A stretch of 64,000 nt of DNA from positions 1 to 64,000 of IMG/VR virus record IMGVR_UViG_3300049926_000042; one strand, given 5' to 3'. The DNA comes from a virus (taxonomy: Duplodnaviria; Caudoviricetes). The notes beneath the pieces are model-generated. The model was not told the origin of the DNA and searched no databases. It saw only the letters and a list, made by a program, of their open reading frames with translations. The translations under genes and the position numbers were made by a program. This document shows positions 9,028 to 12,341 of this stretch, piece by piece. Position 1 is the stretch's first letter. The number at the start of each line of letters is the position of its first letter.

Positions 9028-9426
9028 ATGGCAGCAATCAAGACTCTCACCGTGCACAACCCGTGGGCCTGGGCGATCATCTTCGGTGGCAAGGATACCG
9101 AGAATCGCAGCTGGCCAACGCCCTATCGAGGGCGTCTGATCATTCATGCCGGACAGAAGACTGACCGTCCGGCGATCACCTGGCTCAACGATCACGGCAT
9201 CGACGTCCCGGTCCGCGCTCTCGACAGAGGCGTGATCATCGGGATGGTCGATCTCGTCGACTGCGTTCAGGACTCGACAAGCATGTGGGCCGATCATGGA
9301 GCTTGGCACTGGGTCCTGAAGAACCCTGAGCCCGCTGACTTCATCGTCCCCACTCGCGGACAACTTGGTGTGTACCCGCCACCGGCCGACTGGAGGGATG
9401 CCTTCAGCAGCCGTCAGATCACATAG
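9028..9426 (+). CDS. ASCH domain protein
   Basis: TLTVHNPWAWAIIFGGKDTENRSW..YRGRLIIHAG motif. TATACT at 9017-9022 suggests a leaderless promoter. Confidence 0.88.
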   Translation: MAAIKTLTVHNPWAWAIIFGGKDTENRSWPTPYRGRLIIHAGQKTDRPAITWLNDHGIDVPVRALDRGVIIGMVDLVDCVQDSTSMWADHGAWHWVLKNPEPADFIVPTRGQLGVYPPPADWRDAFSSRQIT

Positions 9427-10112
9427 CGTCCGTCGACATGGCGCAGATTGCTGCGCCTCCAGTCATCGTCCCGGAACGACTCGCGTACGGTCTCCCCCTT
9501 GAAGATCACGCGGGTCGTTCCTTCATCTTCGCCGTAGGTACCGGGCTCATCCCACAGGGGCTCTTCACGGCCGGTGCGCTTCCCGGTCACGACCAGCTCA
9601 CCCTCGACGAGCTTGGCCAAGGAAGCTGCCTGACGCAGAACGTGGTGGCCGGGGGGAGCAGCAAGCACCTTGAAGGCCAGCCACAATCCGGCTGCGGTAT
9701 CCCCCAGATACACCGGCAGATAGCCCAGGTGATCACCCCAAGCACGTGCTTGAGCGATGGCATCGAAGCTCCGTCCGTCAAAGTCGTCGCGCAGTGACAC
9801 CCAGGGCACACCGAGGCGATCAGCCTGCTCGGTCGGATCGACGCCCCACGACTGCCAGGTACTGAGCCTGATGTTGTCGATCACGGCATCGAAGACACCA
9901 GTCTCCAACTCGGTGATCGACTTGGCCGGTCGGGTGTAGACGACCTTCCCGAAGTTGATCCACTCCCACAGCTCGCCACCCCGGTTCAGGCCGAGCATCG
10001 GGTCAGGCGTCGTGCTCGTCCACTTCGCGACAACATGCCCCTGCTCCGCGAGGATCATCCCCGCGTAGGCGGGGGCGATGTACGAACCGATCTCCAGAAT
10101 CCGCAGGCTCAC
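9414..10112 (-). CDS. family III CoA-transferase (CaiB/BaiF-like), compact
   Basis: LRILEIGSYIAPAYAGMILAEQG..V.K N-terminal motif, N.GK, DAVIDN, and GDTAAG with the putative catalytic Asp. Confidence 0.8.
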   Translation of the reverse strand: MSLRILEIGSYIAPAYAGMILAEQGHVVAKWTSTTPDPMLGLNRGGELWEWINFGKVVYTRPAKSITELETGVFDAVIDNIRLSTWQSWGVDPTEQADRLGVPWVSLRDDFDGRSFDAIAQARAWGDHLGYLPVYLGDTAAGLWLAFKVLAAPPGHHVLRQAASLAKLVEGELVVTGKRTGREEPLWDEPGTYGEDEGTTRVIFKGETVRESFRDDDWRRSNLRHVDGRYVI

Positions 10113-11206
10113 GGTGTGCTCGTCTCTCTCGGTGGCCGGTACTCGAAGGCTCGGTTCCCCAGCGCCCGGGGACTGAGTGTCCGCTTGCGCAAGCTCTTGT
10201 CGGTCGAGCTGTTCTGGAGTCTCTTGCGGTGTACCACTTCCTGCCAGCGGGGACTGACGCTGTAGTAGCGCACCATCGCGGGGTGGGTCACCACGTTGTG
10301 GTAGCGGTAACCCTGCTCATACAGATGCTGGCCGAGCCAGTCGTCAAGACGCCCCCCGATGCCCAGACCTTGATAGTCGGGCAGCACGACCAGACGGTGC
10401 CCCATCTTGATGTTCTTCGTCCGTGCGTGGGGGAAGTGCAGATAGCTGGTGAACGCCACAGGCTCTTCACCGATCCAGGCTGTGAAGCACTGCGCACCCC
10501 GGTGGATCTCAGCACTCAGATAGTGATGGCGTGCAAACAGGGACCAGACGGAACGATCAGTCTTGTGGACCCTGACGTCGAGCCTGGGGTGGGGTTGAAC
10601 CGACCTCCAGGCTGACGACTGAGCAGCGGTGTCGTACACCCAGTCGGGCTGTAGCCAGTCGACGACGTCGTAATGGCAGGTGACCGCGATCAGCTGACGA
10701 TCGTCTCTGCGCACCGCCTTCTGGACAGCATGACTCGCGATCTTGGCGACTTGCCTGTCGACCGTGCTGGTGAACTCGTCCACGACCACGAGTCCAGCGG
10801 TCTCCGCCAGGGAGCGGGCCACAGAAGCACGGAAGGCCTCACCGGTCGACAGAGTCCGATAAGGGCGCATCCACGCCGGTGGGCTTCCGAGTCCGACGGC
10901 CGTCAGCAGACCGACCACGGCCTTGATCCCCAACTCGGCCGGAAAGTCGTCGATCAGTGCTCCGTCATCCGCCCACTGATGATCACCTACGGTCTCATCC
11001 GGCCAGAACGATCTAGCGAGCGTCGACTTGCCGGAGCCTGACGGACCGACGATCAGGCCCACGTTCCAGGGCTTGTCCTCGACAGGGAGATCGACATCCC
11101 ATGCGTTCACCAGCTTCTCGGCCAGCGGGACGTCGAACATCGAAGCCATCTGGAGCACACGGGCAGTCTTGTGAACCTCGCTCGACACCTCGATGTGAGC
11201 CTTCAT
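10109..11206 (-). CDS. ABC-type ATPase fused to GNAT (Mom-like) acetyltransferase
   Basis: GPSGSGKST, LSTGEAFR, VVDEFTS, VTCH in the ATPase part; FARHHYL...RLVVLPDYQGLGIG in the GNAT part. Confidence 0.88.
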   Translation of the reverse strand: MKAHIEVSSEVHKTARVLQMASMFDVPLAEKLVNAWDVDLPVEDKPWNVGLIVGPSGSGKSTLARSFWPDETVGDHQWADDGALIDDFPAELGIKAVVGLLTAVGLGSPPAWMRPYRTLSTGEAFRASVARSLAETAGLVVVDEFTSTVDRQVAKIASHAVQKAVRRDDRQLIAVTCHYDVVDWLQPDWVYDTAAQSSAWRSVQPHPRLDVRVHKTDRSVWSLFARHHYLSAEIHRGAQCFTAWIGEEPVAFTSYLHFPHARTKNIKMGHRLVVLPDYQGLGIGGRLDDWLGQHLYEQGYRYHNVVTHPAMVRYYSVSPRWQEVVHRKRLQNSSTDKSLRKRTLSPRALGNRAFEYRPPRETSTP

Positions 11207-11208
11207 GA

Positions 11209-11736
11209 TCAGCCCTTCCTGGGTGGTGTGTACTCGAACGCCCGTGTGTTGAGCGTTCTGACGTCCACGAACTTCCGAATGGTGGTCACGTTGGCGACCG
11301 ACCCGGAGCCATGCCAGCGGACAGCGTTGGAGCGCACTCTCTTGTCCTCACGCCAGCGAGGTGATCGTGAACAGTAGGCGATCACAGCCGGATGGGCGAT
11401 CACTCTCCGGTAGCGGAACCCCTGATCGTAGAGGGACTGTCCGATGTACTCGGCCAGATGACCCGAGATCCCCAAGCCCTGATAGTCGGGAAGCACCACG
11501 GTCCGATGGCCGATCTTGATGTTCTTCGCGTACGGATGAGGCATGTGGATGTAAGCGCTGAAGGCCACGAGGTCTTCACCGATGAAGCCCCCGAAGCACT
11601 GCGCACTGCTGTTGATCGAGGCACTCAGGTAGTGATGACGGGCGAACATCACCCAGACGCTGCGCTCAACGCGATGCACAGCCAGAGTAATGGCGGGGTG
11701 ATCGCGCACGGTGCGCCAGGTGAAGGCAGCGGTCAC
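11209..11736 (-). CDS. stand-alone GNAT acetyltransferase, paralog of the adjacent fused GNAT domain
   Basis: FARHHYLSA...RTVVLPDYQGLGISG; GTG start overlaps the ParB stop (GTGA). Confidence 0.85.
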   Translation of the reverse strand: MTAAFTWRTVRDHPAITLAVHRVERSVWVMFARHHYLSASINSSAQCFGGFIGEDLVAFSAYIHMPHPYAKNIKIGHRTVVLPDYQGLGISGHLAEYIGQSLYDQGFRYRRVIAHPAVIAYCSRSPRWREDKRVRSNAVRWHGSGSVANVTTIRKFVDVRTLNTRAFEYTPPRKG

Positions 11737-12341
11737 AACATCATTGCCTTCACGTCGTGGCCCTTGTCGGCCAGCTCCGTGAGCAGCTCGACCTGTGAGG
11801 CCTCGTCCTGGCAGGTGACGATCACACCCCACACCCGCATGACGTCGTCGGTGTCGGCGTCCCCGGGCTCAGGCATCTTCTCGACGTGGTCGGTGCCCAG
11901 CTCGGTGAACTCCTCGAAGGTGTAGCCGGTGCCCGTCAGATCGTCGAGTTCAGCGAGCAGCGCAGCAGTGAGCTGATCGTCACGATGGCTGAACTCGGGG
12001 ATCCGGTTGTCGGCGATGTTCACTCGCAGAGCGGTCGCGTCGTCGCAGGTGTACACCTCGCAGCGAGGCCTGCCGGTCCACCCCTGATGGCATACACCAC
12101 ACGGCGTCTGCTCGCTGTCGTACTCACACTTGCCTGTGCCGTGTTCTGCCAGTGCGGCCATGGTGTGGTTCCCGGCCAACACGACGTTGCCGTGTTCGGT
12201 GTGCCTCACGATCAGGCTGCGGTACTGACCGTTGGCGCGCAGAGACTCCAGGATCTTGGGCACGTCCCCGACGTTCGCGTTCCCCGGGAAGGGGGAGAGC
12301 TGATCGAGGGCGATGGCCTTCGTGGTCACGTACTTGATCAC
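11733..12341 (-). CDS. ParB/Srx-like N-terminal domain protein
   Basis: LSPFPGNAN..GDVPKILESL..GQYRSLIV..VLAGNHT motif. Confidence 0.85.
   Translation of the reverse strand: MIKYVTTKAIALDQLSPFPGNANVGDVPKILESLRANGQYRSLIVRHTEHGNVVLAGNHTMAALAEHGTGKCEYDSEQTPCGVCHQGWTGRPRCEVYTCDDATALRVNIADNRIPEFSHRDDQLTAALLAELDDLTGTGYTFEEFTELGTDHVEKMPEPGDADTDDVMRVWGVIVTCQDEASQVELLTELADKGHDVKAMML

Follow-up and report, generated by a model that had tools for sequence, protein, structure and literature searches.

A phage gene cassette joining an ABC-ATPase-GNAT module to a compact CoA-transferase homologue: a candidate system for nucleic-acid base acylation

What reaction might be carried out by a phage gene cassette in which a ParB-like protein and two GNAT acyltransferases are accompanied by a coenzyme A (CoA) transferase homologue? 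The question was raised by a stretch of 64,000 nucleotides (the window), which is the first 64 kb of the record of an uncultured actinobacterial Caudoviricetes phage, IMGVR_UViG_3300049926_000042 (87.3 kb, approximately 96% complete, approximately 62% G+C). Four genes lie in series on its minus strand at positions 9414-12341, as part of a longer minus-strand run that starts at a primase-polymerase gene:

11733-12341, minus strand: ParB-like protein (phrog_723, E 1e-35; ParB/Srx-type N-terminal domain)
11209-11736, minus strand: stand-alone GNAT acyltransferase, 175 residues (phrog_11143, E 3e-24; weak match to Pfam Acetyltransf_1/7, E 5e-3)
10109-11206, minus strand: ABC-ATPase-GNAT fusion, 365 residues (phrog_11143, E 3e-99; Pfam ABC_tran and Acetyltransf_1)
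9414-10112, minus strand: compact family III CoA-transferase homologue, 232 residues (fold search and family profile)

The reading we favour, to which we give slightly less than an even chance, is that the cassette serves the acylation of nucleic-acid bases, most likely in the phage's own DNA before packaging. The initial annotation of these genes as four tightly coupled reading frames was borne out. They are real minus-strand open reading frames (ORFs) with GTGA start/stop overlaps at three junctions (upstream ORF/ParB, ParB/GNAT and ABC-GNAT/CoA-transferase) and a 2-nt gap, with a GGAAGGG Shine-Dalgarno-like motif, between the GNAT and ABC-GNAT genes, an arrangement that points to translational coupling. 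The parB start was placed at a GTG codon at 12341, the longest ORF extending to 12377. A near relative of the region was not found by megablast against 50,697 phage records, a scan of positions 8200-13300 for promoters and terminators gave signal only at background level, and the Rfam matches comprised two tRNAs only, both distant from the cassette.

The core module and its two acyltransferases

Judging from its domains, the pair of ParB-like protein and ABC-ATPase-GNAT fusion can be assigned to the module that was predicted by Iyer et al. (2013), as quoted in PMC7824862, to acylate DNA bases, in agreement with the initial annotation. With the system as it is quoted there, the window shares the fusion architecture, the ParB-like neighbour and the place next to packaging genes; it differs in the added compact CoA-transferase and the second, stand-alone GNAT, and most relatives differ further in carrying PanD. 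The fusion is the predicted writer enzyme and consists of an ABC-ATPase domain (residues 1-190; ABC_tran, 31.4 bits, cut-off 25) followed by a GNAT domain (residues 191-365; Acetyltransf_1, 30.5 bits, cut-off 20.7), the phrog_11143 match spanning its full length. Among 27 relatives the ABC motifs were invariant (G54/S56/G57/G59/K60 in Walker A, S120/G122/E123 in LSxGE, D143/E144 in Walker B and H178 in the H-loop), as was the acyl-CoA pyrophosphate-binding motif Q-x-x-G-x-G of the GNAT domain (Q279/G280/G282, reading Q279-G-L-G282-I-G). An AlphaFold2 (AF2) model of the fusion, with a predicted local distance difference test score (pLDDT) of 85, matched ABC nucleotide-binding domains (NBDs) in Foldseek at E 1e-8; these domains dominated the whole-model search, which was uninformative on the nearest structural kin of the GNAT domain.

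The core module has been predicted before and occurs very often in viral contigs. Homologues of the fusion were present in 91 phage records, covering Actinobacteria, Firmicutes, Bacteroidota and Proteobacteria, and at least 583 pattern matches to the family were found in IMG/VR, mostly with ParB and near terminase. A TerL or portal gene lay downstream of the module in contig L003, Streptococcus phage 315.4 and Gordonia phage Sisko. Neighbour counts for ParB, ASCH and the transferase refer to the 80 closest ABC-GNAT loci, ParB being searched for by tblastn and ASCH by a low-sensitivity test; ParB was found in 40 of them, and in the window, as in almost every complete locus recovered with the transferase, its gene is the immediate upstream neighbour. 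In eight related viral contigs (L022-L029), PanD and the transferase are flanked by two complete ABC-GNAT genes. These copies are sister lineages in sequence comparison, which points to a lineage-specific duplication, and the doubled gene may yield a heterodimeric ABC writer.

The ParB-like protein of the window had no Pfam match, and its ParB relatives matched ParB_N (PF02195). It combines a conserved C-terminal domain with a Cys-rich insert, and its nucleotide-binding motif GxxRxxA reads LAGNHT in the window's clade, Thr replacing Arg. The insert, of approximately 30 residues (window 11950-12100; residues ~90-125 of the long ORF), has five Cys and one His in the pattern KC...PCGVCH...RC..YTC and may, from this pattern, be a zinc-binding element; it is present in this phage and in contig L054 and absent from the other cassette ParBs. 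In a 2026 study, the activation of a DNA T-dioxygenase by a phage ParB-like protein was specific to double-stranded DNA (PMC13229309). That pair, 5mYOX176/ParB176, likewise places a short phage ParB-like protein with nucleotide-binding and C-terminal domains beside a DNA-modifying enzyme that needs it on double-stranded DNA (PMC13229309). It differs in its enzyme class; the window protein, for its part, has LAGNHT where the Arg-containing motif would be, and the Cys-rich insert. Activator or DNA-loading partner is the probable role of the ParB-like protein in the cassette.

The stand-alone GNAT is a paralogue of the fused one, as had been noted from the shared motifs FARHHYL and VVLPDYQGLG, and has 49% identity to it over fusion residues 192-361 (E 2e-61). 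The supposition that it arose as a local duplicate did not hold. In the tree, 11 stand-alone GNATs form one clade with 100/100 support, set by a long stem among those of the fusions, and in other phages (L051, L055/L056) a stand-alone GNAT is followed by an ABC-only protein, without a fused GNAT and without the transferase, which indicates that it can be the sole catalytic head. These proteins retain the whole conserved core, including the Q-G-L-G-I-S/G motif, and differ from the fused GNATs at four otherwise conserved positions (L234I, N304R, M311V and Y315C), which map in the model to the counterparts of GNAT strand 5 and helix 4. A distinct donor or site preference of the stand-alone GNAT is plausible from these differences, and it may add the second step or target suggested in the initial annotation. 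In L055/L056 (761-6202) the split module of stand-alone GNAT and ABC-only protein lies directly after a 7-deazaguanine set (QueF, QueC, PTPS, radical SAM, GTP cyclohydrolase I and DUF6610), and this phage may combine two nucleic-acid modification systems.

The two GNATs had also been described as Mom-like, and this description had to be abandoned. Neither matched the Mom profile PF25680 at E up to 0.1 (Mu Mom itself scored 253 bits), and hhalign of the family profile against Mu Mom gave a probability of 0.2%. Mom transfers glycine from Gly-tRNA, not an acyl group from acyl-CoA (PMC13219725). With Mu Mom, which acts on adenine N6, the cassette would have in common the GNAT fold and an aminoacyl group placed on a DNA base after replication for restriction evasion (PMC13219725); Mom acts alone with Gly-tRNA, whereas in the window system the acyl-CoA motif is intact and the GNATs are accompanied by an ATPase, ParB and a CoA-transferase. 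On sequence comparison, Mom is best regarded as a precedent for aminoacyl marks on DNA and not as a relative of the window GNATs. Because the Q-x-x-G-x-G motif is kept and a CoA-transferase is linked, the donor would be an acyl-CoA rather than an aminoacyl-tRNA.

The compact transferase and the proposed acyl donor

Against PF02515 (CoA_transf_3), the window transferase scored 20.3 bits over its N-terminal part, below the cut-off of 23.3; other family members passed (P0124 with 36.8 bits, P0142 with 47.5 bits), and many have a precomputed PF02515 match. A phmmer search of PDB sequences with the transferase alone gave nothing meaningful, and the family profile matched formyl-CoA transferase from Brucella (E 2.5e-4) as well as Rv3272. 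The AF2 model, built from a 29-sequence alignment, had a pLDDT of 95, and its top Foldseek matches were all family III CoA-transferases. Alignment with VIA-align gave Z 17-18 to CaiB, SUGCT, YfdE, FRC and Rv3272, with 226-230 of the 232 residues aligned at a root-mean-square deviation of 2.5-2.9 Å. Approximately 229 aligned residues spanned approximately 345 residues of the targets, so that approximately 115 residues, the small domain, had no counterpart, and the model indicates with high confidence a protein that is the large domain only, with the small domain removed. Like family III CoA-transferases (FRC, YfdW, CaiB, SUGCT, Rv3272), it has the large-domain fold, CoA-binding motifs in its N-terminal part and the catalytic Asp of a D-x-x-x-G loop. 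These enzymes are longer (350-430 vs. 232 residues) and have the small domain, which is absent here, as presumably is the interlocked-dimer architecture that goes with it.

The initial annotation of a compact family III CoA-transferase that keeps this Asp was thus confirmed at the level of fold and residue. The segment G137-D138-T139-A-A-G142 (GDTAAG) is invariant or nearly so in the family, and D138 aligns with the catalytic-Asp loop, 'LVD' in Rv3272 (within one residue of D175 by count) and 'MTD' in the Brucella enzyme; D175A and D169A mutant entries were among the Foldseek matches, the D175A entry being Rv3272. Positions resembling CoA contacts (K56, N80 and D117) are conserved as well. D117, in FDAIAQA, was rejected as the catalytic Asp, as it aligns with the GYD/GHD motif in the Rv3272 and Brucella alignments that place D138 in the catalytic loop.

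The family has 246 members after clustering at 90%, and a set of 1.84 billion representatives yielded 63 clusters of it at 50% identity. In 401 sampled actinomycete genomes a full-length copy was found only in the reference Lentzea genome (L006), the others matching via ordinary 400-residue transferases. The family is therefore small and mostly viral, and a literature search for a compact transferase found nothing relevant. One contig (L015:843-2057) carries a 404-residue ORF that joins an ABC-ATPase domain to the compact transferase, without GNAT and without PanD; it is known from this single low-coverage contig and may be a true fusion, a deletion or an assembly artefact.

The initial link of the transferase to the module gained strength from the wider survey: the gene follows the module directly in more than 40 viral contigs and prophages, besides being fused to the ABC domain in the one contig. 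The rule in the viral loci and prophages recovered with it is the order ParB - ABC-GNAT - PanD - transferase. PanD converts aspartate to beta-alanine. This order is found in the cultured phage Jace (Gordonia/Rhodococcus; host Rhodococcus erythropolis RIA 643), whose gp85 is ParB, gp86 ABC-GNAT and gp87 aspartate decarboxylase, and whose gp88, annotated as 'hypothetical protein', is the compact transferase at 62% identity; an Actinomyces prophage repeats the Jace order, with ASCH and terminase coming next. Among the 39 distinct transferases, 24 come after PanD, nine come straight after ABC-GNAT and four are located on chromosomes. PanD and the transferase without ParB-ABC were not found in any complete phage context. 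The L003 PanD, the one checked, retains the Gly-Ser self-cleavage site. Cassettes devoid of PanD, that of the window included, are scattered in the transferase tree and imply at least five losses, which fits a supply of beta-alanine by the host. Neither PanD nor a pyridoxal phosphate (PLP) decarboxylase was found in the window's genome, so that host beta-alanine would be used.

The four chromosomal copies (Lentzea, L006; Nocardia, L007; Salininema, L086; Promicromonospora, L087) are all flanked by a GAD-like PLP decarboxylase (TIGR01788, E 1e-108, just below its cut-off) and an aminobutyraldehyde-dehydrogenase-like gene (NF010000, E 8e-187). In the tree they group as a single clade within the phage copies, a placement that suggests the capture of a phage gene by a cellular omega-amino-acid pathway. 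The products of PanD, GAD and aminobutyraldehyde dehydrogenase are omega-amino acids (beta-alanine or gamma-aminobutyric acid). Since two unrelated decarboxylase folds adjoin the same transferase, a shared metabolite is indicated rather than a shared protein contact, and the PanD neighbours in phages together with the GAD-like and dehydrogenase neighbours in chromosomes point to an omega-amino acid as the substrate. We infer that the transferase makes an omega-aminoacyl-CoA, in phages beta-alanyl-CoA or similar, and that the GNATs use this product. The earlier proposal of a non-acetyl donor remains the best reading and is sharpened accordingly to omega-aminoacyl-CoA. CoA-transferases are an established route to beta-alanyl-CoA (e.g., PMC13067684), and the beta-alanine CoA-transferase of Clostridium propionicum (Act) offers an analogy, in function only, for the proposed reaction of beta-alanine with an acyl-CoA to beta-alanyl-CoA.

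The same neighbourhood could be read as an auxiliary metabolic or regulatory module, in which the transferase, with PanD in the relatives, secures the supply of beta-alanine and CoA or is a CoA-binding regulator, and the GNATs use acetyl-CoA. Such a module would explain why the small domain is absent and why most ABC-GNAT modules, as well as the form with stand-alone GNAT and ABC-only protein, do without the transferase; PanD feeds CoA biosynthesis and a GNAT consumes acyl-CoA. It accords less well with the near-invariance of the catalytic Asp loop, with a gene that is strictly adjacent, translationally coupled and in one case fused to the ABC domain, and with the two decarboxylase folds (PanD and PLP GAD-like), which are better explained by a shared product than by protein contact, and we regard it as improbable. 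A related candidate, the transferase as a PanZ-like activator of PanD, was rejected because it also pairs with the unrelated PLP decarboxylase and persists in at least nine cassettes devoid of PanD.

In three unrelated phage lineages (L059, phiE255 gp30; L062, a Porphyromonas phage; L060, Gordonia phage Sisko gp3), ABC-GNAT is followed by a Formyl_trans_N protein, which is an accessory alternative to PanD and the transferase; Sisko gp3 carries the annotation 'tRNA-methyltransferase'. Enzymes of the Formyl_trans_N family formylate free amines, and it is a matter of speculation that amine formylation would suit an aminoacyl mark.

The ASCH neighbour and the possible target of the mark

Three further genes follow at lower coordinates:

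9028-9426, plus strand: ASCH-domain gene, convergent with the cassette (Pfam ASCH, 23.3 bits, cut-off 21.2; phrog_3193, E 6e-41)
8360-9037, minus strand: protein of 199-225 residues (sole match phrog_645, 'Rnase E', E 2e-15)
7323-8219, minus strand: papain-family (Peptidase_C1) cysteine protease (phrog_16701, E 4e-45)

The 3' end of the ASCH gene overlaps that of the CoA-transferase gene by 13 nt. ASCH enzymes hydrolyse N4-acylcytosine compounds and erase N4-acetylcytidine (ac4C) from tRNA (PMC6972931; bioRxiv 10.64898/2026.02.27.708502), and the roles of the residues in their motif GxKxxExR were taken from the latter study. The motif is intact in the window (GGKDTENR); among 33 cassette-linked ASCH proteins it is exact in 28, and K..E.R is kept in all 33. 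An ASCH gene lies directly beside the module here, in many actinophage loci and in Streptococcus and Oenococcus phages, and was found within 4 kb in 16 of the 80 closest ABC-GNAT loci by the low-sensitivity test. From its motif, the ASCH gene is a candidate N-acyl-base amidohydrolase (eraser or proof-reader) or a reader, and its recurrence in intact form beside the module favours an N-acyl-cytosine mark, hinting at cytosine N4 as the target. By tblastn, the window ASCH is matched at 49% identity by a stretch of Jace that bears the annotation gp89, 'helix-turn-helix DNA binding protein'; on this similarity the annotation looks doubtful. A literature search for N4-acetyl-deoxycytidine in phages found nothing relevant.

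The order ParB, stand-alone GNAT, ABC-GNAT, transferase, ASCH and terS-like gene is repeated exactly in contigs L053 and L054, and syntenic homologues of the 8360-9037 protein come after the cassette in L051, L053, L089 and L091. The initial naming of this neighbour as terS was not sustained: its only match was phrog_645 ('Rnase E'), it had no Pfam match and no similarity to the terS of Jace, and terL lies approximately 4.4 kb further on. The Peptidase_C1 gene sits between the cassette and the terminase region and is syntenic in the relatives L051 and L053.

The main rival reading places the mark on RNA: the ATPase-GNAT protein would acylate cytidines of host or phage tRNA or rRNA, as TmcA/NAT10 does, with ASCH as the matching eraser, in translation control or in escape from tRNA-directed defence. 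Writers of ac4C are built in this way, from an ATPase and a GNAT coupled together, the characterised ASCH activities are all on N4-acylcytidine nucleosides and tRNA, and the phage carries tRNA genes. The combination of TmcA/NAT10 with ASCH (YqfB-type) indeed resembles the cassette in pairing an ATP-dependent GNAT writer with an ASCH amidohydrolase bearing GxKxxExR. The likeness stops at the ATPase, which is of the helicase type in the RNA-acting TmcA and an ABC NBD here; moreover, DNA is suggested by the ParB-like partner and by a location at the replication/packaging junction, and the module adjoins DNA 7-deazaguanine genes in L055. We consider an RNA target unlikely.

For DNA, the circumstantial evidence consists of the ParB partner, the position at the replication/packaging boundary, the 7-deazaguanine neighbours in L055/L056, and the fact that DNA methyltransferase domains of PF01555 (N6/N4) and PF00145 (C5) were not detected in the 87-kb genome. 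These observations favour DNA as the putative substrate, and the role may be anti-restriction. Another reading, also of low probability, is that a protein or a small molecule receives the acyl group from the GNATs, in the service of host take-over or counter-defence, and that ParB and the ABC domain do no more than target or regulate these enzymes. The acceptor is not fixed by anything in the sequence, many phage GNATs modify proteins (e.g., Rac; PMC7824862), and a small gene beside the homologues in Porphyromonas phage is labelled 'acr candidate'. Conservation of the trio with ParB and ASCH across Actinobacteria and Firmicutes, together with amine/acyl accessory enzymes, is rather the pattern of nucleic-acid hypermodification cassettes, and no candidate protein partner is conserved in the neighbourhood.

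Several observations weigh against base acylation of DNA from an omega-aminoacyl-CoA. Regarding the writer and its partner, a literature search for an experimental paper on a characterised ABC-GNAT found none, and the window ParB has lost the conserved Arg of its nucleotide-binding motif. Regarding the donor, the Pfam score of the window transferase falls short of the cut-off. The protein also lacks the small domain, to which, to our knowledge, every solved family III enzyme owes a complete active site and its interlocked dimer, and CoA transfer may therefore be beyond it altogether. A CoA-transferase is missing from 68 of the 80 closest ABC-GNAT modules, which indicates that the writer does not need it; beta-alanine was extrapolated to this phage from relatives bearing PanD, and the formyltransferase-like gene that replaces the transferase in other lineages indicates that the chemistry may vary by lineage. 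Regarding the target, ASCH activities characterised on RNA and nucleosides fit an RNA target equally well.

Proposed reaction sequence and implications

What the genes encode, how their products fold, which catalytic motifs they keep, how closely the genes are coupled and which neighbours recur are matters of observation; donor, target and biological role are inferred. In the sequence of reactions that we propose, the compact transferase would transfer CoA from a common acyl-CoA to an omega-amino acid, for which the host's beta-alanine is the most likely candidate. The ABC domain of the writer would couple ATP to its dimerisation on the substrate or to the opening of the substrate, with the ParB-like protein assisting on duplex DNA, and the GNAT domain would move the acyl group from acyl-CoA to an exocyclic base amine. 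The stand-alone GNAT would provide a second catalytic head of the same family, maybe with a different donor or site preference. The resulting mark would be an aminoacyl group (beta-alanyl or a rearranged isomer) and not an acetyl group, and the ASCH amidohydrolase beside the cassette would serve as eraser or reader of N-acyl marks of this kind, pointing to cytosine N4. The complete proposal, an aminoacyl DNA hypermodification in which a beta-alanyl group (or, as Mom chemistry would suggest, the rearranged 2-carbamoylethyl isomer) is placed on an exocyclic amine, likely cytosine N4, by an ABC-GNAT writer with a CoA-transferase devoid of the small domain as donor enzyme and ASCH as eraser, is tentative and in our estimate stands a clearly better chance of being wrong than right.

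The compact transferase, the PanD/GAD association, the clade of stand-alone GNATs and the ASCH link appear to be undescribed so far. ParB/ABC-GNAT is among the most widespread phage gene sets with a predicted DNA-modifying role, and a clue to its chemistry had been missing. The accessory genes (PanD in relatives, the compact transferase and ASCH) give a specific hypothesis, a mark of the beta-alanyl type (C3H5NO, +71.04 Da), probably on cytosine N4, which the cultured relative Jace (gp85-gp88) makes testable. If true, it would amount to a new DNA hypermodification and a new minimal class of CoA-transferase, and to a use of beta-alanyl-CoA outside catabolism. It would also be the first case of DNA aminoacylation fed by a CoA thioester and of an acyl mark on DNA that has both a writer and an eraser, and would yield acyl writer and eraser tools relevant to restriction evasion, epigenetic tagging and sequencing chemistry.

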